A DNA stretch of 64,000 nt from sequence record OZ346212.1. One strand, written 5' to 3'. Both the position numbers and the translations under genes were made by a program. This document shows, one piece after another, positions 5,099-24,791 of this stretch. This DNA comes from a phage. The notes beneath the pieces are model-generated. The model saw only the letters and a program-made list of their open reading frames with translations, made no database searches and was not told where the DNA came from. The number at the start of each line of letters is the position of its first letter. Position 1 is the first letter of the stretch.

Positions 5099-5125
5099 AC
5101 AAAGGTCAGAACGGAAAGGACTCCT

Positions 5126-5154: not shown

Positions 5155-5185
5155 TAGTCCTAAGGAATTTTCTCAGGAGAACGTG

Positions 5186-6229: not shown

Positions 6230-6240
6230 AAAGAGGGTAA

Positions 6241-6507: not shown

Positions 6508-6516
6508 GGAGAAATC

Positions 6517-8310: not shown

Positions 8311-11300
8311 ATGCTTCCAATCCCTTTGCTAAAACTTGGTCGTCATTTCCTCGATAAGAGGGGTGGAATTAAGGAACTTGCTGTTCTGTCATACCCAATA
8401 GACAACAGTGATGGTACAAGCAACACAGTATCCTATGTAAATAGCTTAGCTATACTTTTTGATGATGGTCAGCTTAATATTACTGGCTATAACAAGTTCG
8501 GAGAGTGCCGCACTGGGGATCGTAGCCCTATAAACTATCCGAGCGAAACAGCCTGGAATGTTGATCATGTGTGGAGAGCAGACCGCGCGTTTGTGATCCG
8601 GACTTTTGATAACCAGTTTTTCTACATCGGCTGCACTGCAGGTCTTATCGGATCCACTGCGGCAGGCGGTAATGATGTTTGCGTAAACGAGTGGACACCA
8701 CTCCCAGAGCAGATTGTTAAAGGATTGCACCTTGACACCCACCCAGAACGCCTTATTGAGGTGATGGGCGGTATTAACAACACTGTCTGGGTTATTGCAG
8801 AGGCAGAAGGTACTGGCATACTTAACCTGTATGGATCTGGTAACAACACCTACGGATCTTTGCATGTAGATAAAAATCAGCATGCAACCCCTGTAAAGAT
8901 TGGTGAGACATCGGAAAATCCTGAAACAGGCCCTTGGAAAAACCCAAGCATCAACTGTGAGGTGCATGACAACTCTGTTATTTTCGGTGGTCCTAGGGGT
9001 TTCTGGATTGCTGGATACGACTTTCTGAGAAATAACAGTAGAAACGACCTTGTTTGGCCTCCTGTGCAGATTACTCGTAACGATTTGAGGGGCATTCCTG
9101 CAGATGAGGAGTGGAAAGGGTTTATGTGTGGTCCTAACGGGGCAGTAATTGCTACACAGAGGATGCATAGACCCGATGACCAGCAGCTTGTTAACGTATT
9201 TTATGGTCAAAACATTTGGGGAGATGATACATGGCGGGAACTGAATATCACCTACACCCATGAGGTAATGATGGCTCGTGGGTACGGCACAAGTGGCATT
9301 TTCTTCAATAATGGCACTAAGCAGTATCGTGGGTTCTCTCGCAACTTATGTAATGATATTGGTGCACAATCTGCAAACAATAGTCCTAGGGCCGATTTTA
9401 TCCACTATCAAGCTCTTGCTACAGCTAAATATGTTGAGCAACGCCTGCCAGTCAGCTGGACAGAGAGTGTTTATTTCCAAGGCATCCACAGAGAAGGTTT
9501 CTTAGGGACCTTTACTGTTGTTAATGGTAAACTTTGGTGGTCAGGTATCCCAAGGGGAAGTTTTACAGGCTCTAATAACCTGTTTGGCGGCAGACTTAAT
9601 AGTCAGGGGTTCACAGAGGTTCCTGAGAATTGGTATAAAAATGTCCCAGTAGACAGTTGGGGCGTTGATGATATTTTCGACGTTAATGGTGTTAGCAGTG
9701 TTAGCAATATCTACATTGGTGACACGGTCAAGATGAAATTGAAGCCTCAGCCAGAGGGAGCTACGTTCATCATTGACAAGATTGAACTGGTGAATGCTGC
9801 AGGTACGGTTGTTACAGATGCAAATTACCAATTCTCCACCAACTGGAACCACGGCGGGGCCAACGAAGTTGTTGTTACCCAGTATAACAGAAATGTTAAC
9901 AGACGTGGCCTGTACTCTGTAAAAATAACCTATCATGACAAGCATGGCACAGGCAGAACTCACACGACAAGGACTTTGAACTGGAACACCATAGTTCCTG
10001 CGTATCCGTCCAACGGCAAGTGGCATACCGTTGGTAGAAACAAGCAGTTCCATGTTAACGATACTGTATACTTTGGGCTGAATGGGACCCAGCCTGCAGT
10101 AGAAGGGGATACATCGTATATGGTCAGACTCCACAGAATGGATGCTGGATCAGTCACTTATGATGTGACCCAAGAGATCTACGATCAAAGACGCGCCACG
10201 TATGACAATATTGTGAAAACACAAGCCTTGTGGGAGTTCAATCCTAATGGCAAGGGTGGTAAAATGTTGCAGGTTAATGAGCAGAACGGAACGTCGTTGA
10301 CTGTTCACGAACACCCAGACCCTTGGCCTGATCCTGGAAAACCTCACCCGGGAGCTCGTACACTGAAAATTGTCAGCCATGATGCAGGATATTTCGGAAT
10401 ACGCTGGGAAGCTACAGTAAGATATGTCGACGGGACAACAAACAACATAGGGATTACACTTGGCGGCACTAGTGAAGATAGCTCGCTGAAAATTGCCTAC
10501 ACGCCCAGAGGTATCTCTATTGATAATATGGATGTTGTTCGCAATGGTTACGGCGATGTGAATGTCAAAGTTACTCTTGGCGAACATCTTGGTGGGGAAA
10601 GGATCATCATGTATGCCTTTGATCATGATCCACGCACCAATGGAACTTATGCAAATCAGGCATGGAGTTACCTGATAAATGCACCTGAGCCGAATACTAA
10701 AGAGTTCTACTATGGCATGAAGCGAGATGTGTGCAAGAAAACAGGAACACATGACTGGATTGCTATCTGCGTTAAAGATGAGCGCACAGCTTGGGATGAG
10801 CCTGTTAACAGATGGTTCATAGGTATTCCTACCAGAAGTGATAAGTATGTCGCAGAATATATTGTATGCATGGGCGGTACCAACCTAAACATGTGTTGGA
10901 ACGAAGATGTAAACAAATACTCTGATTATGACTATATGAGGGATTACTCTTGTAATTTGTGGTTTAACCAAACTACAGGTTACCCTCCAAGACAGGCGAG
11001 AGTAAACCCTGCAATCTTCACAGACACGCAGGTTTTCTTGACAAAACAGGCCAACGAGGTTCAGACCTTCAAGAATAAATACGATCCTAACAAGTGGTTC
11101 TACAACTGTTACGGCGCATTTTTCTGGGGACCTGGTGAGTTACCTGGTGGTGGATCTTGCTTGAATGAGGCAACTTACGCAAGTGACTACATCATGGGGC
11201 AGGTCAAGAAGTATAAGATAATCCCCGGTCCTGAGACTTTGGGCAATGCCGTTGACCCTTATATCATCATGACTGCACTGAGATCAAACATGGATGGGAC

Positions 11301-13947
11301 ATCCATGTCCATGCAAATTCCGGTAACAAACGGATACAAACGTGTTGTGATGATCATTAAGTGCGACCTGATAGGTAAACAAGTTCTTGCAGAAAACGGG
11401 ACATCCACACATCCTTTTGAGATCGCTCTGCACTATCAGTTTGCTGACTCACCTTTTGCAGGGGATAAGAGAATATCTGATACAGACGCACAGCGTTGTA
11501 AGAAAGTATTGTTGGGTGCAGGTTGGTGGTGGTATGAGTTTGATTTAACAGACAAATTCACCGACACGTCTAAAGTTGTAACAGGACTTCGTCTAGACCT
11601 TGGCGAGAACATGCACAAAGCTGTTTGTGATGGCACCTATGGTGACCCTACAATATACCTAAAATATGTTTCTTTTGAGCATCCGGAAGATGTTGTCTAC
11701 GGTCCAAAACTGAGATTGTTTGGCAGCTGGATTGCAAAAGATAGGGTAGGCATGGGTAAGAAGGTAAGAGGGTTCTTGGTTGATGCAGGAACAGAAGACA
11801 TGCTGGTTAATGCAGTATGGCCTGAATTACCTGGGACTCAGTGGGACAACTCAGCCAAATCTATAAACTGGTTTAACATTCATAGGGCCATGTGGACCAC
11901 TAACTGCTACTTGTGGAGAGAGCTTAACGATCAGGCCTTTGGATTCAGCGAGGGTAGAAGGATGGCGATCATTTGCTGGACAACACTGCAAAGATGTTAT
12001 GACCATGACTATGAGATTGGAGGCAGGGCATGGAAAAATATCAGGGATAGAATCATAACCAATTTTGCAGACGACAACGGTGGTGGAGCACATAACTTTG
12101 GCACAAGCCGACTCATCCATTTGAACGGATCCTCAGCCTACAAGAAAGAAGGTTACTCTGGGTCTATGATCGAGCGGGGTCTGGTGAAAGATGCTCGCGT
12201 ATTGATGGGCCAGCAACTTGCTGCCGCAGTAGGTCCCAGCGCAGTGCAGTCGGTTAAACCAGCGTGGTTCGATATTCCATTGTGGTCACCCGGAACACCG
12301 GGAACTGCTGCAATCAACCCTACCACTGGGGATCTGGAAATCTCCTGGGAAGACCTGAAGCAGGTCGGTGGTTGGGACAAAACAGGGTATCAGGTTCAAT
12401 GGTGGAGGGCTGACGGATCTTTAGCCGCTGATGAGTTTGTTAAGGACAATTTCTACACTATGTCCTCTGCAAAAGCACAGCAATTATTTGGTCAGGCAAC
12501 TCCGTCAACGATCACCATGTCTATGTGCTGTAAAGACAACAGGACTGGAGCTTTGGGGCCAAGGGTTGCTAAAGTTTTCTCAGGTATTAAATGGAATCTA
12601 CCTGTCCAAAGTATTTCATGGAAGCAAATAGGTGATAACAAGCTGCTGGTTACCCCTGCCTGTCAGTTCAACGCAACTCTTAACGTTGATCCTGCTGTTG
12701 CGGCAAACTCAGCTAAAGCTTCTGACTTCTCTGTGTCTAACACTGCTATGGCAGATGTGAGGAAGATTGACACGCTGAACGCCAGAATTACCTGTAAAAA
12801 CACTTATGGCACATTCCAAATCATCAACAACTTCACAGATGCTGATTCTAAGGTAGTGAGGACAGCAAGCCAGACTCTGAGTTTAGGAACTCTGGCCTAT
12901 GCGGCCCTGATCACCGAACAGTCGGCAACACTCCAAGGAGGTGGTGTAGGCAAGTCCATTACAACACCTGTGTGGAAGCCAAATGAGTGGGTTGTGTTTG
13001 ATTTGACTGTGGACTTCTCCAGCGATAATAACTGGACATGGGTAAGGAATTGTTTGTCACAGTTGATGGGCGGTCCAAGCTCCGTTAGTGATAGTCACGA
13101 CTCTACTGACCCGAGTGTGTTCCAGGTAGGTAAAACTCACCCAGAGACTGGAGAAACGTTGCCTGACAGGAAGTATGCTTTGGTTTGCATCTCTTACGGG
13201 AAGGCAGATGTCGCCTTCTCAGGGACACACACTTATAACGGAACCTACAACTTCTCAAGGAAGTATAGTCTCAAAGCAGGGAACATTATAGACGAGGTTG
13301 GTGCGCTGTATAATCCGGGCAACGGCATAGGGATTGTTGGTGGTAAACTGCAGATGCAGGAACCTTCTATTACCCCTTCCAACGTATCCGGGATTAGAAA
13401 GACTTGGGAAAGTAGTAATACCAACATTGCAACAGTGGATGCCACCACAGGACTGGTAACATTTAAAGCTACTGGGAATGTCACCATAAAGTTTGTAGTT
13501 ACTGATGATGTAGGGCGCAAAACGTCTTCAACATCTTTTACTGTCAAACAGATGGCACCACAGTGGAGAATGTGGATAGGTACAGCAACAAACGGGGCAT
13601 ACCCTAATCCGTCAGGTACTTCTGGTATGAAGACTTTCTCTACAAGCAAACCGATGGAGTACGGCAGCGGTCCTAAGGTAGGGCAGATGGTGTACTTTGG
13701 TGCGTATATTCCTGAAATTATAGGGCTTCCTAGAAGTCAGCTTCAGTTGCTGTTTGGGGCTGGTGTTGACGATCTTGCCACTTTCGGGTATAGCGACAAC
13801 ATCGAGGCTGCAAGGAGTTCAGGATGGGTAGGGTTCAGAATGGAGTCTGGAAAGGAAGGCAGGATTCTAGGGACAGCCTCTATAGGTGTTATGTTCCCTG
13901 GTGACCAGCAGTATCGTCTAGAAGCCTACGCAACCTTTTCTCGTTAA
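8311..13947 (+). CDS. giant multi-domain structural protein (1878 aa), putative tail fiber/adhesin with RCC1-like, FN3-like and Big_2-like segments
   Basis: Single uninterrupted ORF; N-terminal repeats (GYNKFGECRTGD, YGSGNNTYGSLHVD) resemble RCC1 propeller blades; near C-terminus ...IRKTWESSNTNIATVDATTGLVTFKATGNVTIKFVVTD matches the bacterial Ig-like group 2 pattern. Confidence 0.8.
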   Translation: MLPIPLLKLGRHFLDKRGGIKELAVLSYPIDNSDGTSNTVSYVNSLAILFDDGQLNITGYNKFGECRTGDRSPINYPSETAWNVDHVWRADRAFVIRTFDNQFFYIGCTAGLIGSTAAGGNDVCVNEWTPLPEQIVKGLHLDTHPERLIEVMGGINNTVWVIAEAEGTGILNLYGSGNNTYGSLHVDKNQHATPVKIGETSENPETGPWKNPSINCEVHDNSVIFGGPRGFWIAGYDFLRNNSRNDLVWPPVQITRNDLRGIPADEEWKGFMCGPNGAVIATQRMHRPDDQQLVNVFYGQNIWGDDTWRELNITYTHEVMMARGYGTSGIFFNNGTKQYRGFSRNLCNDIGAQSANNSPRADFIHYQALATAKYVEQRLPVSWTESVYFQGIHREGFLGTFTVVNGKLWWSGIPRGSFTGSNNLFGGRLNSQGFTEVPENWYKNVPVDSWGVDDIFDVNGVSSVSNIYIGDTVKMKLKPQPEGATFIIDKIELVNAAGTVVTDANYQFSTNWNHGGANEVVVTQYNRNVNRRGLYSVKITYHDKHGTGRTHTTRTLNWNTIVPAYPSNGKWHTVGRNKQFHVNDTVYFGLNGTQPAVEGDTSYMVRLHRMDAGSVTYDVTQEIYDQRRATYDNIVKTQALWEFNPNGKGGKMLQVNEQNGTSLTVHEHPDPWPDPGKPHPGARTLKIVSHDAGYFGIRWEATVRYVDGTTNNIGITLGGTSEDSSLKIAYTPRGISIDNMDVVRNGYGDVNVKVTLGEHLGGERIIMYAFDHDPRTNGTYANQAWSYLINAPEPNTKEFYYGMKRDVCKKTGTHDWIAICVKDERTAWDEPVNRWFIGIPTRSDKYVAEYIVCMGGTNLNMCWNEDVNKYSDYDYMRDYSCNLWFNQTTGYPPRQARVNPAIFTDTQVFLTKQANEVQTFKNKYDPNKWFYNCYGAFFWGPGELPGGGSCLNEATYASDYIMGQVKKYKIIPGPETLGNAVDPYIIMTALRSNMDGTSMSMQIPVTNGYKRVVMIIKCDLIGKQVLAENGTSTHPFEIALHYQFADSPFAGDKRISDTDAQRCKKVLLGAGWWWYEFDLTDKFTDTSKVVTGLRLDLGENMHKAVCDGTYGDPTIYLKYVSFEHPEDVVYGPKLRLFGSWIAKDRVGMGKKVRGFLVDAGTEDMLVNAVWPELPGTQWDNSAKSINWFNIHRAMWTTNCYLWRELNDQAFGFSEGRRMAIICWTTLQRCYDHDYEIGGRAWKNIRDRIITNFADDNGGGAHNFGTSRLIHLNGSSAYKKEGYSGSMIERGLVKDARVLMGQQLAAAVGPSAVQSVKPAWFDIPLWSPGTPGTAAINPTTGDLEISWEDLKQVGGWDKTGYQVQWWRADGSLAADEFVKDNFYTMSSAKAQQLFGQATPSTITMSMCCKDNRTGALGPRVAKVFSGIKWNLPVQSISWKQIGDNKLLVTPACQFNATLNVDPAVAANSAKASDFSVSNTAMADVRKIDTLNARITCKNTYGTFQIINNFTDADSKVVRTASQTLSLGTLAYAALITEQSATLQGGGVGKSITTPVWKPNEWVVFDLTVDFSSDNNWTWVRNCLSQLMGGPSSVSDSHDSTDPSVFQVGKTHPETGETLPDRKYALVCISYGKADVAFSGTHTYNGTYNFSRKYSLKAGNIIDEVGALYNPGNGIGIVGGKLQMQEPSITPSNVSGIRKTWESSNTNIATVDATTGLVTFKATGNVTIKFVVTDDVGRKTSSTSFTVKQMAPQWRMWIGTATNGAYPNPSGTSGMKTFSTSKPMEYGSGPKVGQMVYFGAYIPEIIGLPRSQLQLLFGAGVDDLATFGYSDNIEAARSSGWVGFRMESGKEGRILGTASIGVMFPGDQQYRLEAYATFSR

Positions 13948-13960
13948 CAAGGGGATAAAT

Positions 13961-13990
13961 AAAAAGGGGCCAAACGGCCCCTTTCTTTTT
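13961..13990. terminator. bidirectional rho-independent terminator between convergent operons
   Basis: AAAAA-GGGGCC-aaac-GGCCCC-TTTCTTTTT; A-tract upstream and T-tract downstream. Confidence 0.75.
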
Positions 13991-13994
13991 ATAG

Positions 13995-14195
13995 TTAGTA
14001 ATACTCCCAACATGCCCCATCTTCAGACGGCTTGACGCGCTTACCTTTATGGTCAACATAGGTATAGCCACAACCTTCACAAATAACAGGTGCTGCATAG
14101 CCTTCCTTCCACTGATCCTCAGTGATCAGACCTTCCAAATCTTTGCAGTCAAAGCCAAACAACTCTTCAGAGCAATCTTTACAAAAATCAGCCAT
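13995..14195 (-). CDS. small Cys-rich zinc-ribbon-like protein (66 aa)
   Basis: ORF with two CxxC pairs (CKDC...CEGC), SD GAGGA upstream. Confidence 0.55.
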   Translation of the reverse strand: MADFCKDCSEELFGFDCKDLEGLITEDQWKEGYAAPVICEGCGYTYVDHKGKRVKPSEDGACWEYY

Positions 14196-14198
14196 TTC

Positions 14199-14606
14199 TC
14201 AGTCCTCGCATTTAACAAATTTTTCTATAGATCCACCAAGCACAGCTTGTTGTTTGATGGCACTTTCTTCATCATAGTGGATAGACTTATGTTCCGTACC
14301 TCCAAACTTACCTGTGTGGAAGGTGTGCACCCAAATCTCTTTAGGAAGGGATTTATTCTCTTCCTCCACCAACTCCCACATACCCCACAAGTGATCTGTG
14401 ATATCTCTGATGAAATATCCCTCGCCGAGGTTTGTATTCACACTGTAAGCTGATTCGTGATCTCCGCAAATATAACGGAAGGCAGTGTACTCTTTACCTG
14501 GTGTGAAGTGAGTATCCATTAGTATGGCTGTTAAAGAATAAGGGTCTCGAAAGCCCAAGAACTTTAGTTTAACAATTTCGACATTTACATCTGCAAGATT
14601 ATCCAT
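14199..14606 (-). CDS. hypothetical protein (135 aa)
   Basis: Start moved to ATG 14606 (MDNLADV...) because SD GAGGAG and a - strand promoter lie inside the longer track ORF 14199..14663. Confidence 0.6.
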   Translation of the reverse strand: MDNLADVNVEIVKLKFLGFRDPYSLTAILMDTHFTPGKEYTAFRYICGDHESAYSVNTNLGEGYFIRDITDHLWGMWELVEEENKSLPKEIWVHTFHTGKFGGTEHKSIHYDEESAIKQQAVLGGSIEKFVKCED

Positions 14607-14634
14607 GACGATCTCCTCTGTTTGGTTGGTGAGA

Positions 14635-14664
14635 ATTATATATAGATCTGGTGGTGGCGTCAAG
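14635..14664 (-). promoter_or_regulatory. sigma70-like promoter on - strand (TTGACG-N18-TATAAT)
   Basis: Reverse complement of 14659..14664 is TTGACG and of 14635..14640 is TATAAT. Confidence 0.55.
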
Positions 14665-14767
14665 CTTAATTTTAAGAGATCTGAGAGGGTATTTTATTCA
14701 GGAAGGCAATCGCACAGGGTGGAGAAATTTATGAAGGCACAGGCCTCGTTTGAGGCCTTAAATTCTA

Positions 14768-15148
14768 TTATGACACTTTGACATAGCGCTCTGACAAAGC
14801 TGGGAAGCCAAAAGTAGTGCCTATACTACCATAGGCTATCCACCATTGGAGTTCATCGTGACACCATTTTCCGATCAGGAAGGTGCTGGGATAGCGGGTC
14901 AGTATTTTGGCATAAGCTTTAGGATCTGCATCTTCTGGGATAATGATGCTTGGAATATCTTTGTTATGACCACAGCAGCAGTTTAGCGTTTTCAAACCTG
15001 CTGCCCACAAACTCATGATAGGCTTAGCCATACACTTATCAAGGCACACACGTTTTTTGCCGTCACGAAGATTTTTAGGCACATCAACGATAACATTTGG
15101 ATGCTTGGCACCTTTTACTTTCCAATTATAGGATTTACACTTGCACAT
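14768..15148 (-). CDS. hypothetical Cys-rich protein (126 aa)
   Basis: ORF with SD GGAGAC upstream; multiple Cys clusters (CKCK, CLDKC, CCCGH) suggest metal binding. Confidence 0.6.
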   Translation of the reverse strand: MCKCKSYNWKVKGAKHPNVIVDVPKNLRDGKKRVCLDKCMAKPIMSLWAAGLKTLNCCCGHNKDIPSIIIPEDADPKAYAKILTRYPSTFLIGKWCHDELQWWIAYGSIGTTFGFPALSERYVKVS

Positions 15149-15198
15149 TTAATCAGTCTCCGTCTAGAAAGCCGCACTATACGTTTTTGAGGTATACT

Positions 15199-15369
15199 TT
15201 ACTTAAAGTCTTTATCACCTGCCACGATTGCATGAATCCACTCATTGTGATGCTCAATAGCGGTGAGATGTAACATGATGTAGTGATCGTCATTGCCAAA
15301 CATGATATGATAGGCTTTGGCAGCATTTTGATATAACTTCCACATCAGGTAATGATATCTTCGCCTCAT
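15199..15369 (-). CDS. hypothetical small protein (56 aa), not in ORF track
   Basis: ATG preceded by GGAGTAAGAG; fills the gap between flanking - strand genes. Confidence 0.4.
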   Translation of the reverse strand: MRRRYHYLMWKLYQNAAKAYHIMFGNDDHYIMLHLTAIEHHNEWIHAIVAGDKDFK

Positions 15370-15374
15370 GGCTC

Positions 15375-15845
15375 TTACTCCGGTTCAGGATCTGGGTAAT
15401 CTTCAATAATAAAGGGCCATCCGTTCCGCTTAGCCTCAGACTTATACTCAATCTCCTTCATTGCAAACTCTAACTGATTCTTAGCCGGAATACATGCCGG
15501 AGAATCATCAATCCAGATATCTGGGTAGATATCAAACTGCGCCAGGTAGGCTGCCTTCTGAACACCACCTGTGTAGAACACACCAACATCGAGCTCCTTG
15601 CGCCAATACTCAATGTCTACATTGTCTTGAGTAATGAATCGGAAAGTCACAAGGTAGACTGTCCACCCCTCCTTCTTCAGATCCCTGATCAGGCGGGAGA
15701 AGATGAAAGGGCTCGCATTAAACGTTCCATCAAAGTCGATGGCAATGATGTGCGTGCCGTGGCGAGTCTCATATGGATTGCTCGTGGTAAGATTGCTGTA
15801 ATTAAAAGGGACTTCTTCCCCGCAGTAGCTGTAGTCCATATTCAC
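15375..15845 (-). CDS. HAD-superfamily hydrolase, putative nucleotidase/phosphatase (156 aa)
   Basis: Motif I IIAIDFDGT (DxDxT) of HAD-like phosphatases; SD AAGGTG upstream. Confidence 0.65.
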   Translation of the reverse strand: MNMDYSYCGEEVPFNYSNLTTSNPYETRHGTHIIAIDFDGTFNASPFIFSRLIRDLKKEGWTVYLVTFRFITQDNVDIEYWRKELDVGVFYTGGVQKAAYLAQFDIYPDIWIDDSPACIPAKNQLEFAMKEIEYKSEAKRNGWPFIIEDYPDPEPE

Positions 15846-16117
15846 ACCTTCTCGTTGATAAATTTACGGGCGGTTTGGTGAGTTGTTTCTGCTGTCTTCA
15901 GAATGATATTAATTTTATCGTCAAGATCATTCATCTCGGCAGTTAATTCAGGAATCTCTCCGGCATGCATGGTGAAATCATACATAGACATGCCCAAGAT
16001 CTCATTGATGCGGCGGTTGCATTCTGCAGCACGCTGGTTCATTTTCCAAGCTAACACCAAAGCCTCCTGCGTAGCCTCTAGTGCAAAATCTAATACGTCG
16101 GCCTCTTCTTTCGTCAT
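15842..16117 (-). CDS. hypothetical protein (91 aa)
   Basis: ORF with SD GGAGAG, start overlaps downstream gene. Confidence 0.6.
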   Translation of the reverse strand: MTKEEADVLDFALEATQEALVLAWKMNQRAAECNRRINEILGMSMYDFTMHAGEIPELTAEMNDLDDKINIILKTAETTHQTARKFINEKV

Positions 16118-16174
16118 CTTAGTCTCTCCTGTTGTATTGTTGGTAGGTGTATGAATACCTTATAACTCACCTTT

Positions 16175-16741
16175 TTATTCAAACTGCAATAGTAAGTCCA
16201 CCACCGCGCTAGGTCTGTCAACAAATTCCCCAGGTCCACATGCCCACAGAGGGTATCCGTCTACATACCGCCAAATCCAACCTGCAGTGTGGAGTTCGAG
16301 CAGGGCAGTACCGTCCTTACTGTCAACCACTCTTTCCCACAGTGTCGGGCAGCGAAGCTTGAGGATCGGATCCCCTCCCTTATACCCATCCATGTAGATA
16401 CCCATTGCAAAGTTCAGCATCATCTTTTTGTGCACTGATCTTTTACTGAGGGTACTCATCACTTCCTCTTTGTGAATGTTTGTAAGCTTCTCCTTGGCTA
16501 CCCGCAGATCGTTGCAACCATTGTTCAGCAGATCTTCCAGACACTTGATCCGAAGGTCGTGAATGTCTTTGTCGTGTACCGTTGGCACAGGGTCGTAGCG
16601 GTATAGCACTGTTGATACAAGGTTGCTCGGGTGTGGGTCTGACAGCAACCCATAACCCCAATACTCTTCTGTATCTGAAAGGACAAGACACCCAATGTCT
16701 CTGTCAAGCTTTCCTGTGTTGTAAGCCACATTGACCGCCAT
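16175..16741 (-). CDS. hypothetical protein (188 aa)
   Basis: ORF in - strand operon with SD-like GGAGC upstream. Confidence 0.6.
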   Translation of the reverse strand: MAVNVAYNTGKLDRDIGCLVLSDTEEYWGYGLLSDPHPSNLVSTVLYRYDPVPTVHDKDIHDLRIKCLEDLLNNGCNDLRVAKEKLTNIHKEEVMSTLSKRSVHKKMMLNFAMGIYMDGYKGGDPILKLRCPTLWERVVDSKDGTALLELHTAGWIWRYVDGYPLWACGPGEFVDRPSAVVDLLLQFE

Positions 16742-16743
16742 GA

Positions 16744-16989
16744 CTATAGCTCCACTAGCAAAGTGCTTTCAAAGTGACGTTCATGCAGACCGTTGTAAGG
16801 GACCACTTCCACAACGCCATCACGGACATATGGGGCCATCATGGTGGTATAATCTCCAAACGGGTTGGTATTGTCACTAACCACAACCACCTTCTGCCCT
16901 TCCTTGGCAGAGTGCCAAATAGATCTGCACTTCATCAGGTGTTCGAGAGCCCCAGGTAAAATTTTGTTACGTTCTTTACGGGTCTTCAT
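16744..16989 (-). CDS. hypothetical protein (81 aa)
   Basis: ORF with SD AAGGAG upstream. Confidence 0.6.
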   Translation of the reverse strand: MKTRKERNKILPGALEHLMKCRSIWHSAKEGQKVVVVSDNTNPFGDYTTMMAPYVRDGVVEVVPYNGLHERHFESTLLVEL

Positions 16990-17435
16990 AACAGGTATAG
17001 CTCCTTATGAAAGTGATCTTTTAATTTCTCACTGAGAAACTTCTTGATACCTTCCTCTAAAGTGTTTTCGATGTAGTCCAGCTTAACTGCTTCGATGGAC
17101 ATATCATAGATCGCCAGCTCTAAGCTGTCAAGTCCCATCATAGCATGAACCATAAGATTTTCATCTTCAGATACATTCAGGGGACTTCCTATAACATCTG
17201 GAGGCAGAATAGTTTCCCAATTATTCTGGGTGGTAGTTCTCCCTCCCTCTACTTTACGGCGCAGTTCGAATGTGTTCTTAGTGTAGAACACTTCATAAGA
17301 AACGATACGACTGTCGCTCTCGTAATAAACGAAGTTCAGGTAGGAGCCTAGCCGCAGTCGGCAAACTTCTACCCCAAACCATTGTTTCTTATAAGAATTC
17401 AGGCTAATGCTGTCGCATTCACGTTTGCTCAACAC
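16986..17435 (-). CDS. hypothetical protein (149 aa; start GTG 17435 or TTG 17432)
   Basis: ORF preceded by AAGGAGAGAG; non-ATG start. Confidence 0.55.
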   Translation of the reverse strand: MLSKRECDSISLNSYKKQWFGVEVCRLRLGSYLNFVYYESDSRIVSYEVFYTKNTFELRRKVEGGRTTTQNNWETILPPDVIGSPLNVSEDENLMVHAMMGLDSLELAIYDMSIEAVKLDYIENTLEEGIKKFLSEKLKDHFHKELYLL

Positions 17436-17451
17436 GGCTCTCTCCTTTTTG

Positions 17452-17688
17452 TTAATCTTCGTAAATCAGGATTTCTGCTTTAGGTTTTCGTGCTTTCATG
17501 TCCAGCTCTATCCAGTGCACCATAGCTGTTTCAAGAAAAACAGCCTGGATGCATCCGTCCTCAGCAGCGTGTCCTAGCAGCATAACAAGATCTTCTCCTT
17601 CGTCATCTGCACCACGAACATACAGAATCTCCCCGGGTTCAAAATCTTTAACAACCTGATTGTTGGATAATTTACGAATTTTCGCCAT
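17452..17688 (-). CDS. small protein, member 4 of tandem paralog array (78 aa)
   Basis: Shares the PGE..V....DDEG...V..L...WIELDMK pattern with the three upstream 87-aa genes. Confidence 0.6.
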   Translation of the reverse strand: MAKIRKLSNNQVVKDFEPGEILYVRGADDEGEDLVMLLGHAAEDGCIQAVFLETAMVHWIELDMKARKPKAEILIYED

Positions 17689-17689
17689 A

Positions 17690-17953
17690 TTAGAAACCCT
17701 CTAAAAAGCTCTTGTAGAAAATAATTTCAGTATCTACACCAGTCACGATCTTATCGTTCCTGATTTCATCTGTAAGGTAGGTGTCAAAACGCAGAACCTG
17801 TGTGGTGTTGTCACACATCCACTCAGCTGTGACCATTGCGAAAATCTTAGCATCTTCATTATCTGGTGTGAATGTTACCACCTCACCGCACTTAAACTTT
17901 TCGATAGGCTGAGTGTTAGCTTTCGGTTCTGCGATAGTGATTTTTGTGGTCAT
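17690..17953 (-). CDS. small protein, member 3 of tandem paralog array (87 aa)
   Basis: SD GGAGGAG; motif F.CGEVV...IVTGVDTEIIFY parallels the neighbours. Confidence 0.65.
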   Translation of the reverse strand: MTTKITIAEPKANTQPIEKFKCGEVVTFTPDNEDAKIFAMVTAEWMCDNTTQVLRFDTYLTDEIRNDKIVTGVDTEIIFYKSFLEGF

Positions 17954-18216
17954 TATTCTCCTCCTTCTTTTGAATAGCTTGTCTCTCCAAGGATGGTAAT
18001 TTTGGTGTCAAGCTCTGTAACTTTCATGTTTGGCGGCAGATCGTACAACTCATTATTTTCTAAATCGAACCCCCACACACAATGTTCTCCTGTTTTGACA
18101 ATCATAACTATGTTTTGAATGCCGTCTCCGTCGCAACTTACCACAGTCCCACACGGAAAGCTGTCTGCACGCTTTTTGTTCTTCACCTTAGAATTGAATA
18201 CAATGCTGGTAGCCAT
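17953..18216 (-). CDS. small protein, member 2 of tandem paralog array (87 aa)
   Basis: SD GGAGGA; CGTVVSCDGDG...VTELDTKITILGE aligns with 18216..18479 product. Confidence 0.65.
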   Translation of the reverse strand: MATSIVFNSKVKNKKRADSFPCGTVVSCDGDGIQNIVMIVKTGEHCVWGFDLENNELYDLPPNMKVTELDTKITILGETSYSKEGGE

Positions 18217-18479
18217 TATTGTTCCTCCACCATAACTTCGCCAATAATTTCTATGCAGGCATCCATTTCTGTAACAACCAAACTGTGAGGTAGTTCTACA
18301 AACACCTTTCTGAACAGGTCAAATACCCCAACATATATGTTTGCAGGATGTGATTTTACAACAAGTGCTGTATTCACATCCCCAAGTTCATCAACAAACA
18401 TCACCACAGTGCCTGGAGCTACTGAGGACAGATACTTCTTAGTTTTACGGTTTGATGCAAATTTTAACTCTGTTGCCAT
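18216..18479 (-). CDS. small protein, member 1 of tandem paralog array (87 aa)
   Basis: SD GAGGAGG; PGTVVMFVDELGD...VTEMDACIEIIGE. Confidence 0.65.
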   Translation of the reverse strand: MATELKFASNRKTKKYLSSVAPGTVVMFVDELGDVNTALVVKSHPANIYVGVFDLFRKVFVELPHSLVVTEMDACIEIIGEVMVEEQ

Positions 18480-18494
18480 AAATAACCTCCTCTC

Positions 18495-19955
18495 TTACTT
18501 AGCGTACTCGATTAATTCCACAGTTTTACCAAAGCTCGGGATATAATTTTTATTATACCCCTCAGTGAGGACCCATAGAGTATCGTACTTTTTCCACTTG
18601 TTGTCAACAACCTTTTGTTCAAAGTTATGCTCAAAGTATAGGTCGGTCAGGACGATGACATCTTTTGCATTAGGTATGTTGGCATCCAGATACTCGAACA
18701 CGCAAGCAGCTGTTGTGCCCCATGTTGAGTGGACCTCATAGTTGATCATCTCGTCTATGTTGCCGCGAGTGTATACTTTAACCTCTCCAACCTCAGTTGA
18801 CCAACAGAACATTGTAACCTTAAACTCTTTATACAGATTGCACAATCCGGTGATTTCATTGAACATTTTCTTTAAAGTTCTTTGAGAGATCGAGCCAGAA
18901 ACGTCTAAAGCCACCACAATATCTATAGTGTTTTCCGGATTACGACCAGGAACAATAACGTGCTGGTTCTTGTTTATAGCCCCAACTTTTCGCATTGTGC
19001 TGGTCAAAGACCCAGATCGGCGACCAGGTTTTCTGTAGGTCAGTTCGGCCTTTCTTTTAGACAACATACGTTGCTTAATGATGTCTATATAGTTGATTAC
19101 AGGCTTACCTCTGTTCTTGACAAACTCACGCACCGCCTCAGGGCAACGGCCTCCGGACGCTTGCATTGCTGCCTCCAGCATATCACCAGAGTCCTGCATG
19201 GCCTGATCTTTATCAGATTGGCTGATTACAGGTTGTGGCTGATCATACCCCATAGCCTTTCCAAGATTATCACTGGTGCCACCGTTCCCACTCATGTGAT
19301 CATCGGTTTGTCGCTTATCACTTTGAGAGTTCTCACCTTTACCGTTCTTACTTTTACCGTTATTCTGATCTCTTTGCTTATCAAGAACTGCATAAACGTT
19401 CTCAGCAATCCATCCATGAAACTTCATGTCGCAGTAGCAGCTGGCTAAGAAGCCAAAAGGCTTACCTTTCATGAACGTAGTGCTTTTCCCCTTCGGGAAG
19501 AAAACACAAGGGGGTTTGCTAAAGTCAACCACAAGGCCTGTGTTGATAACGTGATCACAAGCAATATTGAACAGTTCCGGCTCAAAGCTTTTACCACGGA
19601 CTAGGTGATCACAGATAATATGCCCCACCTCATGTGACAGAAGGAAGGCCACCTCTTTCACAGATTTTGGGGAATAGAAAACTTCAGCCATCTCAAACTG
19701 CTCGTCAGTTAGAGAAGCCTTAAGAATAGCCTTGCGCTCATCAGCCAATCCCATAATGAACTCAGGACTGTAATAGATGCGTTTATGGTCGGTTGCCATG
19801 GTGGAGCACCATGTGTGGTTTTCTACGAACTGCAACCCTGACAGTAGTGTGCCATAAAACGGCAGCTTTTCAAGGAGATACATACGTGCAGCCTGCAACA
19901 TTCTCAGGGCATCATCTTTCTGCGAGGCAATGATTTCTGAACTTCTGCTATCCAT
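18495..19955 (-). CDS. metallopeptidase-like / von Willebrand factor A domain protein (about 486 aa)
   Basis: HExxH zinc-metallopeptidase-like motif (HEVGHIICDH) in N-terminal half; MIDAS-type VWA motif (VVALDVSGS) in C-terminal half; start set to ATG 19955 (SD GGAG) because ATG 19976 lies in the loop of a hairpin. Confidence 0.7.
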   Translation of the reverse strand: MDSRSSEIIASQKDDALRMLQAARMYLLEKLPFYGTLLSGLQFVENHTWCSTMATDHKRIYYSPEFIMGLADERKAILKASLTDEQFEMAEVFYSPKSVKEVAFLLSHEVGHIICDHLVRGKSFEPELFNIACDHVINTGLVVDFSKPPCVFFPKGKSTTFMKGKPFGFLASCYCDMKFHGWIAENVYAVLDKQRDQNNGKSKNGKGENSQSDKRQTDDHMSGNGGTSDNLGKAMGYDQPQPVISQSDKDQAMQDSGDMLEAAMQASGGRCPEAVREFVKNRGKPVINYIDIIKQRMLSKRKAELTYRKPGRRSGSLTSTMRKVGAINKNQHVIVPGRNPENTIDIVVALDVSGSISQRTLKKMFNEITGLCNLYKEFKVTMFCWSTEVGEVKVYTRGNIDEMINYEVHSTWGTTAACVFEYLDANIPNAKDVIVLTDLYFEHNFEQKVVDNKWKKYDTLWVLTEGYNKNYIPSFGKTVELIEYAK

Positions 19956-19968
19956 TAAAACTCCAGAA

Positions 19969-19983
19969 GGGGCCATCGGCCCC
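19969..19983 (-). terminator. hairpin between - strand genes, possible terminator/attenuator
   Basis: GGGGCC-atc-GGCCCC, followed on the - strand by U-rich ttctggagtttta. Confidence 0.35.
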
Positions 19984-19988
19984 TGTCA

Positions 19989-21029
19989 TTATTTAACGTG
20001 TTTGAAAATACCTGCCAACTCGGTCATTGTCATGCGGGTGGTCTTCATAAGATCTGTCATAGCTTTCTCCATAATTGGAGATACTACCATAAAGTTTCCT
20101 TTAGTGAAACCTTTATTCCAGTCGGTCACCAACAGGGGTTTAAGTCCAGCTCCAAGACGTTCACCAGTTAAAGCACAGCATTTGCGAATATACGAACTCT
20201 TAAATTGGCTGAACGACAGATCAACTTTCATACCTACATCGTAGAACGTTTGACAATAGAAAGTGTAAGCTTTGGCAATCTCAACATCATCAGGTAGTGC
20301 AGGAACCTCTTCTGTAAGCTCCTCTTCGACCTCCTGAGTCTCTTTTTCCTCTTCATGCACCTGTTGCGTCATTTCTTCAATCTCTTCTGTGATAGGCTCG
20401 TTTACAATGTCGGAAATGTGCTTCTTGGGTGCACGATAAGTAACTTTAGACATCGGTAGCATATCTTCCTCCTCTTCTTCGTCAAAGAGTGCTAGTTTAT
20501 CCTCTTCCGTTCCATATTGCAAGATGAAATCTTCAAAAGTATAATCACCTTTCAATTTCTCCATACGCTCTTCGCTCAGGTGGAGCATCATCTGCTGGAC
20601 AATTTTTCGATCAGTTTCGTCTTTAATCAAGACTGCAGTCTTTTTATCTACCAGACAGTCCTTTAGAGAGTTGCATCTCAATCCCACCACACAACAGTTA
20701 TCAACCGCATAAGGACCTTCATCATCTATCCGCTCCAGAGATGGGTAGAAAGGATTCCCCAGCCCGTTTTCATCTGTGTGCATGTCAAAAGGTATAAGGG
20801 TATAGTCGCATACTCCATCTCCTAAAAGTTTTTTACCAAATAGGAGGTATTCTTCCCATGACAGGTCGAACTCTATATCTCGTTTCCGTGCGTTATTCTG
20901 TTTGCGTCTATATTTTTTGAGCAAGCGCTCTAACTCTTCTGGTGTATAATATTTTTCAAGATTCATGAGTCGTCTCTCGTGCTCTGTAAGTGAAGAAATC
21001 GTATCAATTGTCTCAACAGATGTCAACAT
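19989..21029 (-). CDS. hypothetical protein with two related Cys-containing domains and an acidic linker (346 aa)
   Basis: ATG 21029 preferred over TTG 21032; internal duplication (...PSLERIDDEGPYAVDNCCVVGLRCN... and ...CCALTGERL...NFMVVSP...); internal ATG sits in a 29-bp repeat shared with 22292..22320. Confidence 0.6.
   Translation of the reverse strand: MLTSVETIDTISSLTEHERRLMNLEKYYTPEELERLLKKYRRKQNNARKRDIEFDLSWEEYLLFGKKLLGDGVCDYTLIPFDMHTDENGLGNPFYPSLERIDDEGPYAVDNCCVVGLRCNSLKDCLVDKKTAVLIKDETDRKIVQQMMLHLSEERMEKLKGDYTFEDFILQYGTEEDKLALFDEEEEEDMLPMSKVTYRAPKKHISDIVNEPITEEIEEMTQQVHEEEKETQEVEEELTEEVPALPDDVEIAKAYTFYCQTFYDVGMKVDLSFSQFKSSYIRKCCALTGERLGAGLKPLLVTDWNKGFTKGNFMVVSPIMEKAMTDLMKTTRMTMTELAGIFKHVK
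20431..20459. repeat. 29-bp sequence identical (inverted) to 22292..22320, includes an ATG
   Basis: Reverse complement of 20431..20459 = TACCGATGTCTAAAGTTACTTATCGTGCA = 22292..22320. Confidence 0.8.
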
Positions 21030-21039
21030 CAAAAACGTG

Positions 21040-21068
21040 TTGACTTTACTCTAACTCCACAATATAGT
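21040..21068 (+). promoter_or_regulatory. sigma70-like promoter (TTGACT-N17-TATAGT)
   Basis: Hexamers at 21040 and 21063 in the divergent intergenic region upstream of 21109. Confidence 0.55.
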
Positions 21069-21108
21069 GCACCCATTCGAAAGAAAACTAACATAGGAGC
21101 ACTTACTT

Positions 21109-22008
21109 ATGGCAAATCTTAACAGTTTTAGTACGCGGTGGAAACAGGACATAACAACCAATCTTTCAGCTGGGGACATCCTTTCTGCAATTTACGAGGC
21201 TTTAGATGATAAAGCTACTTCAAAAGCGGTTTGTACCAACCCATTAATTCCTATAGTGATGAAGGTTATTGAGCGTAGATTGGTATCTGGGTCTGATAAG
21301 TGGACATATTTAGATAATGAAGGACACACCTATTCCAATGGGTATGTCGATATAAAAGTAGAATACGCGGTATCATACCGCCGGAGCGGTTCTGTAACTT
21401 TCAACTTCTCTGGAGGTTTTCGATCTCTGGCTACCTCACCTTTTGTTTCCTCAGAGGAGAAGTATGAGCTGCCATTTCTTTGGATGATGGCTAACGCGAC
21501 AGGAAAAACCCCCGTTAGCATCCGAGTAAAATACAACTACAACGGATCTAGTAAGATCTATGCCGAAAGTGTCTCAGCAAGTTTTTATTTTGTGATGGGG
21601 GATGGAATCCTCAAACATATAAAGATGTGCGATATGCATGATGTTATAAATGAAGTGACTGATAAGAATGTTCTAGTGAAAGACCTCAACAATTTTTATA
21701 CACCTGGAGACTATTACGTCAGCCGTCCACTGTGCATCTTTAATGCCGCACACCCTCTAGGTGAGTATTTGATCGCCAATAGCGATATTGCCAATAACCG
21801 CTTCGAGGTAGCAAGAGTTCAGAATGAGGTATTGACATCTTGCAAGAGCGGTGATAAGTTTACCGAAGAAGAGATGGGTGTTTTAGAAATGATGGGATAT
21901 AAGTGTAGCCTTTGGGTAGATGAGGTGTTTAATGATTGCATCTATGGACAGGATATTTACCCATTAAAGAAGTATACTGATACAAGTTTAATTTATGCGA
22001 GGGTTTGA
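21109..22008 (+). CDS. hypothetical protein (299 aa)
   Basis: ORF with SD AGGAG 9 nt upstream. Confidence 0.65.
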   Translation: MANLNSFSTRWKQDITTNLSAGDILSAIYEALDDKATSKAVCTNPLIPIVMKVIERRLVSGSDKWTYLDNEGHTYSNGYVDIKVEYAVSYRRSGSVTFNFSGGFRSLATSPFVSSEEKYELPFLWMMANATGKTPVSIRVKYNYNGSSKIYAESVSASFYFVMGDGILKHIKMCDMHDVINEVTDKNVLVKDLNNFYTPGDYYVSRPLCIFNAAHPLGEYLIANSDIANNRFEVARVQNEVLTSCKSGDKFTEEEMGVLEMMGYKCSLWVDEVFNDCIYGQDIYPLKKYTDTSLIYARV

Positions 22009-23337: not shown

Positions 23338-23607
23338 ATGTTATACCAGCAATATGAACTTCGTGCAGAAAAAGAGTTAAATTTTGACAAAGATATTCAC
23401 AGATATTATTATGGGAAAGTTAGAGGGCAAGCAAGAAAGTGTACTCCAACACTCTTTTATGCCAGCAGACGACTAGCGCCAGAAGAGGCAACAGCAGAAA
23501 GGGTTGCGTACAACTGGAGAGTCACGTATGATATTGACAGATTCGATGTGATATCTGTTTTGGAAAACTTTGAAAACACTTACACACAAGTAGAGGACTT
23601 TTACTAA
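23338..23607 (+). CDS. hypothetical protein (89 aa)
   Basis: ORF with SD AAGGAG upstream. Confidence 0.6.
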   Translation: MLYQQYELRAEKELNFDKDIHRYYYGKVRGQARKCTPTLFYASRRLAPEEATAERVAYNWRVTYDIDRFDVISVLENFENTYTQVEDFY

Positions 23608-24791
23608 TGTCAAGAAACGTATTCGAAAGTGGTCAAATCACTGTCCGTGAGTTGCCAGCTATTATTCAGTTTGCCCAACGTCATAGCCGATCTGTCCTAA
23701 TTTTGGGACCAATGGGTGTGGGTAAAAGCCAGGTGATGAAGCAGATCGCTGATAATATGTTCGGTGAGCGAGATGACAACCTTGTTGACGTGCGACTGTC
23801 AGATAAAGATCCTGCCGACTTATCTGGGCTACCTATCCCTGTAGAAGCGGATGGAACTACACGTACAGTGTTTGCAATTCCAGAATTTTGGCCTGCGGAT
23901 CCTGACTGGAGCGGAATTATCTTTCTGGATGAGCTCACTCATGCAGATAACTACCTGCAAAAGGTTGCAATGCAAATTATGCTTGACCACAAGTGCGGCA
24001 CCTATGCATTCCCTAAGGGTTCTGTTTTTGTGGCTGCGGGTAACCGTTCTACAGATGGTGCGGTTCTTTCGGCGCTCGAAGCCCCTCTGGCTAACCGTTT
24101 TATCATTGTAGAGGTTACAAGCAATGCAGAGGTGTTTATTGAGGACTACGCATTCCTCAACGGGGTTCACTCCTCTGTAATTGGGTATCTGAAAAGAGTT
24201 CCATCAGCTATTGATAATTATGAGGCTATGGCTGAGATTAATTGTCCATCTTTTGCCACACCACGATCTTGGGTTGCTGCATCTGACATCTTGCACGATT
24301 TTGACAGCGGTATTATTTCTGACGCTATGGCCCGTGTTCTTCTGCAAGGTGCTATTGGTCACACTGCAGCGGTAGAGATCTGGACATACCACACCAAGAA
24401 ACGCAATTTACCGGAAATCGGTCGGATTATGGCAGGTGGCTGCAAAGAATACGTAGGCCCTAAGCAGCCAGACATTTTGTGGATTCTTGGATCTGAAGGT
24501 TGTATCGCTATTCGTAATATGATGGAAAATGCAAGTATCTCAGACGAAGATCTTGTCAGCTGTGTGGCAAACTTCCTCGATTTCCTTTGGGAAAACTTCA
24601 AGGACGAGAACCGAGATTTTGTATTCTCAGTCTTTATGGCGATGATGAAACCTAATGCCTTAGGAAATGCCTTGCTTATCGGTAAAGGGCGTGACAAGAT
24701 TGTTGCTCAGCTGATCAAAGCATACCCAAACCTGATGAAGATTGTAAAAGAGTTTGGTGAAGAGTTTAGCGCCATTTTGGCTAAAGCTTAA
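23607..24791 (+). CDS. MoxR-like AAA+ ATPase (394 aa)
   Basis: Walker A GPMGVGKS and Walker B IIFLDELTHA; size and layout typical of MoxR/AAA_5 ATPases. Confidence 0.75.
   Translation: MSRNVFESGQITVRELPAIIQFAQRHSRSVLILGPMGVGKSQVMKQIADNMFGERDDNLVDVRLSDKDPADLSGLPIPVEADGTTRTVFAIPEFWPADPDWSGIIFLDELTHADNYLQKVAMQIMLDHKCGTYAFPKGSVFVAAGNRSTDGAVLSALEAPLANRFIIVEVTSNAEVFIEDYAFLNGVHSSVIGYLKRVPSAIDNYEAMAEINCPSFATPRSWVAASDILHDFDSGIISDAMARVLLQGAIGHTAAVEIWTYHTKKRNLPEIGRIMAGGCKEYVGPKQPDILWILGSEGCIAIRNMMENASISDEDLVSCVANFLDFLWENFKDENRDFVFSVFMAMMKPNALGNALLIGKGRDKIVAQLIKAYPNLMKIVKEFGEEFSAILAKA

Follow-up and report, generated by a model that had tools for sequence, protein, structure and literature searches.

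One way to place an unfamiliar phage phosphatase is to set it beside the described enzymes that it most resembles. The gene considered here lies on the minus strand at 15375..15845 of a 64,000-nucleotide (nt) stretch of phage DNA (record OZ346212.1; this whole stretch is 'the window' in what follows). Its product is a very small protein with the motifs of the HAD superfamily, and the family to which it belongs is called miniHAD below. Among phage enzymes, one comparison is with Dmp of phage T5, a deoxynucleoside 5'-monophosphatase acting on deoxynucleoside monophosphates (dNMPs), which counters the Kongming defence system (bioRxiv 10.1101/2024.12.20.629578). Like miniHAD, Dmp is phage-encoded and carries a DxDGT motif near its N-terminus (DLDGT, residues 22-26); it is, however, 244 amino acids (aa) long, and the likeness is confined to motif I in an hhalign comparison whose single-sequence template makes it a weak test. 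A function common to the two would be a matter of analogy, no homology having come to light beyond the level of the superfamily.

A second comparison is with the C-terminal 3'-phosphatase domain of T4 Pnkp (PF25109, HAD_PNKP; PDB 1ltq). This domain too is phage-encoded and capless, with a DxDxT motif, and it shares with miniHAD a motif II of the form S/T-x-R and the DD of motif IV; unlike T4 Pnkp, miniHAD has no kinase domain. PF25109 matched neither the query, nor any of 141 family members, nor the family consensus, whereas the same model scores 4e-26 on a protein encoded next to a miniHAD in viral locus L088; because the two adjoin there, they are taken to be distinct families. An hhalign comparison of the family with T4 Pnkp residues 157-301 gave 1% probability, over motif II only, and is again a weak test with a single-sequence template.

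Stand-alone and capless HADs supply further comparisons. BT0820-family proteins (PDB 2obb, NF046079), like miniHAD, are small, capless and stand-alone. With 2obb the alignment of the miniHAD family profile reaches E 0.028 and takes in motifs I (IAvDFDGT), II (SvR, sharing the Arg) and IV (FIDD), and 2obb is also among the Foldseek matches of miniHAD; against NF046079, whose cut-off is 165, the family consensus scores 12.8 bits (E 0.12). BT0820 proteins are bacterial and about 137-142 aa long, whereas the miniHAD core is viral and spans about 85-100 aa. The KdsC and KDN9P phosphatases (PDB 3e81, 4hgo; TIGR01670) also have a capless core, with the active site covered by an adjacent subunit, and are among the best Foldseek and NCBIfam near-matches of miniHAD, the consensus scoring 24.5 bits with TIGR01670 against a cut-off of 106.95. 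They differ in having about 160-190 aa and a full five-stranded core, and in acting on sugar phosphates of cell-envelope pathways.

The cN-I-like 5'-nucleotidases (PF06189) and the Swiss-army-knife HADs of RNA repair are likewise HAD phosphatases, with nucleotides or RNA ends as their substrates. Of the weak Pfam matches of the family, PF06189 recurs most often (5/141 members and the consensus), scoring about 17.5-17.9 bits where the cut-off is 28.2 and covering the motif III-IV region only. The nucleotidase family NT5C (PF06941) is not among the matches of the query, the 141 members or the consensus; the Swiss-army-knife models PF10307 and PF18143 are absent both from the families listed for the 141 members (E<=0.01) and from the 23 consensus matches at E<=10. 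Other candidates for kinship were rejected: the 'phage phosphatases' that counter aRES are Macro-domain proteins, and the mycobacteriophage gp48 phosphoesterase is a metallophosphoesterase (MPP).

The miniHAD gene and its family

By the sequence evidence the gene is real and conserved, and its product, which many phages encode, is unusually small for the HAD superfamily. Over 13900-17500 the window is 100% identical to Escherichia phage naswa (MN850595), an rV5-like Vequintavirus, and it shares 97-99.9% identity with over 100 rV5-like Vequintavirus genomes. The flagged open reading frame (ORF) was confirmed on the minus strand, with residues 33-41 reading IIAIDFDGT, and is naswa_75, or ORF21 of rV5 (rv5_gp021). 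As called by the program it opens at GTG 15845, overlapping the stop codon of the upstream gene. The likely start is ATG 15839 rather than GTG 15845, because a GAGAAGG lies 7 nt upstream of the ATG and because homologues and GenBank entries (naswa_75, rv5_gp021) begin MDYSYC; since that GAGAAGG sits within the last codons of the upstream 91-aa gene, coupled translation of the two is suggested. Residue numbers below are those of the 156-aa GTG-start ORF, from which 2 is subtracted to give ATG-based numbers. The initial annotation had described the gene and its neighbours as unannotated, which is true of the raw window; in GenBank, however, they carry annotations, mostly 'hypothetical protein', while for the HAD gene a few records have 'polynucleotide kinase' or 'HAD-like domain protein'. 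In PHROGs the protein falls into two families of unassigned function, 4919 and 4256.

An Asp at position +2 of motif I is the signature of phosphatase-type HADs, in which it acts as general acid/base. In an alignment of 141 homologues (A2), 24-68% identical to the query, the four HAD motifs stand in canonical order: D37-x-D39-x-T41, T67-x-R69, K97 and W111-I-D113-D114-x-P116 (Table 1). D37 and K97 are invariant, and D39, T41, T67, R69, W111, D113, D114 and P116 are each kept in at least 96%. Motif I sits at the end of predicted strand 33-37, motif II at the end of predicted strand 62-67 and motif IV after predicted strand 110-112. By the alignment and the strands of the model together, each of motifs I, II, III and IV is present as the superfamily has it. 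The Arg two residues past the motif II Thr is, on this alignment, a signature of the miniHAD family; motif II aligns locally with SGR of T4 Pnkp and SVR of PDB 2obb. The DxDxT is not a chance occurrence, because the family has 933 representative relatives and, across the 141 homologues, the motif residues vary little or not at all.

Table 1. Coordinates of the miniHAD gene, its motifs and the features around it (positions in the window)
Feature	Position	Strand	Remarks
Minimal HAD-type phosphatase coding sequence, 154 aa	15375..15839	-	stop codon 15375-15377; PHROG 4919 at 1.5e-53
Shine-Dalgarno-like GAGAAGG	15847..15853	-	7 nt 5' of ATG 15839; read directly
N-terminal extension, residues ~3-30	15756..15839	-	block pLDDT 62-73; profile matches span only query ~30-118
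HAD motif I, D37-F-D39-G-T41	15723..15737	-	D37 141/141, D39 140/141, T41 138/141
HAD motif II, T67-F-R69	15639..15647	-	T67: 136 T and 5 S of 141; R69 140/141
HAD motif III, Q96-K97, phosphate-binding Lys	15555..15560	-	K97 141/141
HAD motif IV, W111-I-D113-D114-S-P116, Mg2+-binding acidic pair	15498..15515	-	after predicted strand 110-112; W111 140/141, D113 138/141, D114 138/141, P116 137/141
C-terminal extension, long helix 122-141 and acidic tail EDYPDPEPE	15378..15491	-	missing from 85-100-aa members
Leftward transcription unit (predicted), 15 close-set genes including the HAD gene	13995..21032	-	equals rV5 genes 11-26
GC-rich hairpin AAAGGGGCC-AAAC-GGCCCCTTT	13963..13984	.	between convergent tail-fibre gene and leftward unit
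Cys-rich 126-aa neighbour, 8 Cys	14768..15148	-	conserved C2, C4, H16, C39, C57-C59, H61
91-aa helical protein directly upstream of HAD gene	15842..16117	-	slot of MazG-like gene in other Vequintavirinae
188-aa neighbour	16175..16741	-	PHROG 12232, function unassigned; neighbour cluster in rV5-like loci only
149-aa neighbour	16986..17435	-	PHROG 6790 'tail protein'; one record 'putative holin'; across Vequintavirinae

An AlphaFold2 model built on the same 141-homologue alignment (pLDDT 91.2, pTM 0.81) is a Rossmann-like alpha/beta fold whose best PDB matches are HAD proteins. It has four strands only, with neither a beta-hairpin flap nor a cap. At the top of the Foldseek search against PDB stand the CopA P-domain, KDN9P phosphatase, BT_0820 (2obb), AphA and 2pr7, with Pnkp1 at rank 26 and T4 PNK at rank 39; against viral models (BFVD) E values go down to 2e-9, and the names of the matches include HAD-like, PNKP phosphatase domain, nucleotidase and capsule-biosynthesis phosphatase. 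The N-terminal extension is found in the rV5-like clade only and is missing from most family members.

Several searches returned nothing useful for the protein itself: no Pfam and no NCBIfam family matched the query, PDB sequence searches with the single protein and with a five-sequence profile gave noise only, and PADLOC had no match for the protein, the family consensus or eight neighbours. The consensus found TIGR01484 (1.7e-5), KdsC (2.2e-5), PF06189 (0.0019) and PF00702 (0.011), all below threshold. The hidden Markov model (HMM) search that the initial annotation had proposed as a check thus came out divided, with nothing above a curated cut-off but with sub-threshold matches mostly to HAD families. 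Its other check, that absence of a HAD fold from a predicted structure would count against the idea, gave a mixed result: the confident model is alpha/beta with HAD proteins as its best structural matches, but it has four strands where a HAD core has at least five parallel ones with a squiggle and flap after the first, and the Foldseek scores against PDB are weak. Its reading of IIAIDFDGT as the mark of a HAD hydrolase agrees with the conservation of the motifs, with an AlphaFold2 fold whose Foldseek matches are dominated by HAD proteins, and with those sub-threshold matches. HAD-superfamily membership with an intact phosphatase-type catalytic set is well supported by the alignment and the model, and we think the product very probably a catalytically active HAD-fold phosphatase.

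One could suppose instead that the domain is catalytically dead and only binds, serving for instance as a decoy or sponge for a phosphorylated ligand. A fold cut to four strands, and the lack of any curated HMM above threshold, would fit such a protein. The catalytic residues, however, are almost strictly kept across about 140 divergent homologues, as is typical of active enzymes, and where tandem fusions have lost them the loss is in the N-terminal copy only, the other copy being intact; we give the dead-domain alternative almost no credence.

The family is large. A profile search of 1.84 billion proteins found 933 representatives (at 50% identity, E<=1e-3), most of them 90-130 aa long and matching query residues ~30-118; a word-indexed profile search found 1,129 clusters, and among the 120 clusters listed none has a Pfam domain and the source names are almost all 'hypothetical protein'. 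The conserved core is only ~85-100 residues, and complete ORFs of 86-92 aa occur within long contigs. The family is acidic (median isoelectric point, pI, 4.75). It is present in 520/50,697 phage records, the carriers including Vequintavirinae, phiEco32-like Kuravirus, Pakpunavirus, phiPsa374-like phages, Privateervirus, phiRSL1 and PA5oct. When one conserved peptide pattern was run against 185,579 bacterial and archaeal genomes, only 8 loci came up, a lower bound given how narrow the pattern is. On these distributions the miniHAD family is essentially viral.

In kind the gene is ordinary, a HAD phosphatase in a sequenced phage, and the gap that it fills in annotation is a modest one and no surprise. 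The family as a whole nevertheless amounts to some 900-1,100 clusters in phages and viral metagenomes for which there is no Pfam or NCBIfam model, so that members are labelled 'hypothetical' or, wrongly, 'polynucleotide kinase'; the annotation of several hundred phage genomes is at stake. If active, miniHAD marks a lower size limit of the HAD catalytic core.

Several observations on individual members and records stand apart from this. Tandem two-domain fusions are P0041, P0048, P0136, P0138 and P0139, and L035 has an adjacent paralogue pair (6001-6592). In BFVD, Foldseek also matches HAD-like regions within 300-530-aa proteins named XkdF or head-maturation protease (A0A6J7WLI9, A0A6J5NSI2 and others), and in the P22-like IMG/VR contigs L065, L079, L090 and L050 the miniHAD lies between or beside the large terminase and portal genes; some relatives may be virion-associated or packaged. 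In Escherichia phage JLBYU08 (L001, 5476-5948) the HAD gene is annotated as two coding sequences, each named 'putative polynucleotide kinase', and in JLBYU08 and V18 (NC_041937) the tblastn match to the gene falls in two pieces, which suggests that in some isolates the gene is frameshifted or disrupted, or its sequence in error. MG065635, MG065654, MG065666 and about 13 more records of 'Campylobacter phage' are 98-99.7% identical to E. coli rV5-like phages here; probably the Campylobacter jejuni host label is wrong, or the phages came from contaminating E. coli.

Possible substrates: mononucleotides or RNA ends

The account that we favour, at slightly less than even confidence, is that the gene encodes an active, Mg2+-dependent, stripped-down HAD phosphomonoesterase whose substrate is derived from nucleotides, most probably nucleoside or deoxynucleoside monophosphates. 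The narrower proposition that the substrate is a mononucleotide is held tentatively, and on balance is somewhat doubtful. The gene would be expressed from the predicted leftward unit of its rV5-like phage. To judge by the HAD motifs, D37 would attack the substrate phosphate to form an aspartyl-phosphate intermediate, with D39 as general acid/base; T67 and K97, probably with the family-specific R69, would hold the phosphate, and D113/D114 the Mg2+. The enzyme is probably a dimer with its active site closed by the partner subunit, because the core is small and the model four-stranded, without flap or cap. Tandem fusions also suggest that single-domain miniHADs act as dimers: five two-domain members were read, and in P0041, P0048 and P0138 the catalytic residues are lost from the N-terminal copy and intact in the C-terminal one. 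Such an enzyme could take the last step after a MazG-type NTP pyrophosphatase or a metallophosphoesterase, and through it the phage may drain or reshape the nucleotide pool, as T5 does with Dmp.

What points to nucleotides is the company that homologues keep. Those of 158 viral loci that had a called HAD ORF were dereplicated at 60% HAD identity to 62 groups, and the flanks were searched with seed proteins, few enough that the neighbour counts in Table 2 are lower bounds. At least one nucleotide-metabolism gene (ThyX, ribonucleotide reductase (RNR), MazG or dNMP kinase) lies within 6 kilobases (kb) in 18/62 groups, and an RNA-repair-type gene in 5/62. In 3/62 groups the MazG-like gene is directly upstream and overlaps, or nearly overlaps, the miniHAD. 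Phage phiM6 has ThyX, glutaredoxin, MazG and NrdJ upstream of its miniHAD; in a Kuravirus a DNA polymerase, a phosphoesterase and a dNMP kinase are near; and a Grimontviridae phage has the order Sir2, miniHAD, MPP. Among 149 flanking proteins scanned with Pfam the families are mixed, with a P22-type portal (4 proteins) or large terminase (3) beside some miniHADs. The weak PF06189 matches and the acidity of the family count on the nucleotide side as well. A 5'-nucleotidase role is plausible but unproven: homologues in other phages often adjoin ThyX, RNR, MazG or dNMP kinase genes, but links of RNA-repair type occur too.

Table 2. Counts of genes near miniHAD among the 62 groups
Neighbour	Within 2 kb	Within 6 kb	Adjacent
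Metallophosphoesterase (MPP)	7/62	9/62	2/62
ThyX	6/62	7/62	2/62
RNR	4/62	8/62	0/62
MazG-like	4/62	4/62	3/62
dNMP kinase	1/62	3/62	0/62
PNKP-type HAD	1/62	2/62	1/62
Pnk-like kinase	1/62	2/62	0/62
cREC	1/62	1/62	0/62
Sir2	1/62	1/62	0/62
RNA ligase	0/62	0/62	0/62

A number of results weigh against the phosphomonoesterase account or some part of it. None of the 141 members rises above any curated Pfam or NCBIfam HAD cut-off; the model is without the fifth strand and the flap of canonical HADs; and the Foldseek scores against PDB are weak (best E 1.3e-3, TM about 0.4-0.5). The neighbour counts are raw, taken with no background rate, so that they establish no enrichment, and in the window itself no nucleotide-metabolism gene adjoins the HAD gene. 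Other points concern the substrate. Capless HADs often act on macromolecular ends. One homologue, P0028, is a fusion of miniHAD to cREC (PF20274, 2.7e-20); in L088 the PNKP-type HAD (PF25109, 4e-26) is directly upstream and overlaps the miniHAD start; and the MPP found within 2 kb in 7/62 groups is a homologue of the MPP in the rV5 repair cluster.

These last points lead to a second perspective, which holds that miniHAD is a polynucleotide 3'-phosphatase, or a phosphatase for cyclic-phosphate or ADP-ribose-phosphate products, in RNA repair. It would work in trans with a kinase-only Pnk, RNA ligase, cREC, sirtuin and MPP to mend tRNA or other RNA cut by host anticodon nucleases, supplying the missing half of a T4-Pnkp-like enzyme. 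The cREC enzymes are predicted to open 2',3'-cyclic or ADP-ribose cyclic phosphates (PMC7824862, PMC9503650), and an MPP gene overlaps that of P0028, with NMNAT/Nudix and NAMPT genes coming next. A cluster in rV5/Mydo phages comprises a sirtuin, a T4-like RNA ligase, cREC, a kinase, MazG and sometimes a calcineurin-like phosphoesterase (PMC9503650). In the closely related phage CarlMeissner the cluster was confirmed, with RNA_lig_T4_1, cREC, a 136-aa AAA_33 kinase that lacks a phosphatase domain and a 184-aa MPP, adjoined by an annotated sirtuin gene, and these five partners are carried by rV5-like phages; the CarlMeissner MPP shows homology (E 8e-15) to the MPP family that adjoins miniHADs in other loci. 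Pakpunaviruses carry a kinase-only Pnk (PMC12846349) and also a miniHAD. In L078, ThyX, miniHAD and MPP are followed by a Pnk-like kinase 0.9 kb downstream. The T-x-R of motif II resembles the S-G-R of T4 Pnkp, the miniHAD architecture is capless, and some records bear the label 'polynucleotide kinase'.

Against this, the linkage of a T4-type PNKP to 5'-kinase and RNA ligase was not found: within 6 kb there is an RNA ligase in 0/62 groups and a Pnk-like kinase in 2/62, and repair-type neighbours of any kind are confined to the 5/62 already given. The PNKP HMM has no match in the family, and the hhalign result with the T4 Pnkp phosphatase domain is the 1% noted above. The CarlMeissner repair cluster is ~80 kb from the HAD gene (by mapping, outside the window) and already has a phosphoesterase of its own; where a PNKP-type HAD adjoins, as in L088, a second enzyme would be redundant; and the family is acidic, at a pI of about 4.75. 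The links to RNA repair are fewer than those to nucleotide metabolism, and they keep a polynucleotide or cyclic-phosphate role alive. On balance we regard the RNA-repair role, the main rival of the favoured account, as rather unlikely.

The genes of the IMG/VR locus L078 (~3101-5500) are closely set: ThyX, miniHAD with no gap, MPP after a 32-nt gap, then the Pnk-like kinase. The locus joins nucleotide-metabolism and end-healing genes and would make a good experimental system.

A broader version of the phosphomonoesterase account would make miniHAD the smallest self-sufficient HAD phosphatase known: a core of ~85 residues, acting as a homodimer or pseudo-dimer, that serves as terminal phosphomonoesterase after MazG, metallophosphoesterase or cREC enzymes. 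It would destroy a nucleotide-derived substrate or immune signal, in a general module for anti-defence or pool editing, much as T5 Dmp acts against Kongming. This version as a whole seems to us quite unlikely. Depending on the substrate, miniHAD would add to the known phage enzymes either one of the nucleotide pool and anti-defence or a trans-acting phosphatase of RNA end-healing.

The leftward unit and the proposed operon

The HAD gene belongs to a close-set, leftward series of genes (Table 1) led by those for an Srd-like anti-sigma factor and a DUF2201 metallopeptidase/VWA protein. Genes 11-26 of rV5 were proposed as one transcription unit, and bidirectional terminators were annotated in rV5 at the hairpin equivalent to that at 13963..13984 (PMC3606486). 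In the window the co-transcription of 13995-21032 and its timing are predictions, and the hairpin is likely a bidirectional terminator. Rfam found nothing over 13800-21400.

The make-up of this unit raises a further possibility, that miniHAD is a phosphatase for phosphoproteins, or for phospho-Asp or phospho-His, which strips regulatory phosphates from host proteins during take-over and is co-expressed with the Srd-like anti-sigma factor. The leading genes of the unit fit the idea, as does the acidity of the protein; a capless, open site like that of miniHAD is also seen in the CTD phosphatases and MDP-1, which are HAD protein phosphatases. Yet no search found sequence or profile likeness to HAD protein phosphatases, and the genomic contexts of the family are very different from one another, including replication modules and places between terminase and portal genes. 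Because such varied contexts misfit a conserved host-regulator target, the take-over role is disfavoured, and we consider it very unlikely.

The initial annotation had looked to the immediate neighbours. In its proposal the HAD gene and those for the Cys-rich 126-aa, the 188-aa and the 149-aa proteins form a nucleotide-metabolism or DNA-modification operon complementing the methyltransferases. The three neighbours exist as it described them; it saw no recognisable motifs in them, and none has a significant match in Pfam, NCBIfam or PADLOC. They are on the same strand as the HAD gene, closely spaced and probably on one transcript, and the conserved Cys/His pattern of the 126-aa protein suggests metal binding. 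For that protein the AlphaFold2 model (pLDDT only 57.6) is too poor to interpret; the 120 phage records that have it belong almost without exception to the rV5 genus, and no functional link between it and the HAD gene was found.

The distribution of the neighbours tells against an operon of this kind. All three belong to narrow PHROG families without metabolic function (unknown or 'tail protein'), whose range is the rV5-like genus or Vequintavirinae: near HAD homologues outside the rV5-like genus the 126- and 188-aa families are absent, near those outside Vequintavirinae the 149-aa family is, and in Kuravirus, Grimontviridae, Otagovirus-like, phiM6 and metagenomic loci the HAD gene has none of the three beside it. 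Sister genera within Vequintavirinae keep the HAD gene at the same position in the unit but next to other genes: a MazG-like gene lies just upstream and overlaps it or nearly does, and there is also a membrane protein. The methyltransferases, encoded on the plus strand ~15 kb off (their positions, mapped from phage CarlMeissner, are approximate), belong to the replication module and to a different transcription unit. To judge from where the genes occur, the operon is largely refuted, we hold it to be extremely unlikely, and the neighbours in the window are outside the pathway of the HAD protein. The 91-aa protein that fills the MazG-like slot in the window was considered as a diverged MazG and rejected, at an hhalign probability of 0.2%.

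The rest of the unit and its surroundings gave some minor observations. The largest gap within the unit is intergenic, ~160 nt at 14607-14767 on the minus strand, and contains a near-consensus sigma-70-like site, TTGACG-17-TATAAT, at 14663-14635; this suggests an internal promoter for the last two genes. Upstream of the 149-aa gene are three successive 87-aa genes on the minus strand (17690-17953, 17953-18216 and 18216-18479) and a 78-aa gene (17452-17688). The 87-aa genes look like tandem paralogues: besides being equal in length they share a '(C)G(T/E)VV' motif and a pattern at the N-terminus, and in naswa two of them bear the same VOG label.

The 493-aa protein encoded at 18495-19976 (minus strand) has a DUF2201_N domain (putative metallopeptidase, 4e-28) and a VWA-like DUF2201 domain; PHROGs and RefSeq label it 'HNH endonuclease'. 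A few kb from it, at ~23338-24791 on the plus strand, the annotation has a MoxR-type AAA+ ATPase. As a rule MoxR and VWA proteins function in pairs, and for that reason these two may be partners across divergent units.

On the other side of the hairpin, 8311-13947 (plus strand) is one continuous ORF for a 1,878-aa tail fibre with Ig-like/intimin domains. Over the same span naswa is annotated with two coding sequences (naswa_69, naswa_70), and other rV5-like records with one; either naswa was annotated differently, or the window, whose identity to naswa was compared over 13900-17500 only, differs from it there.

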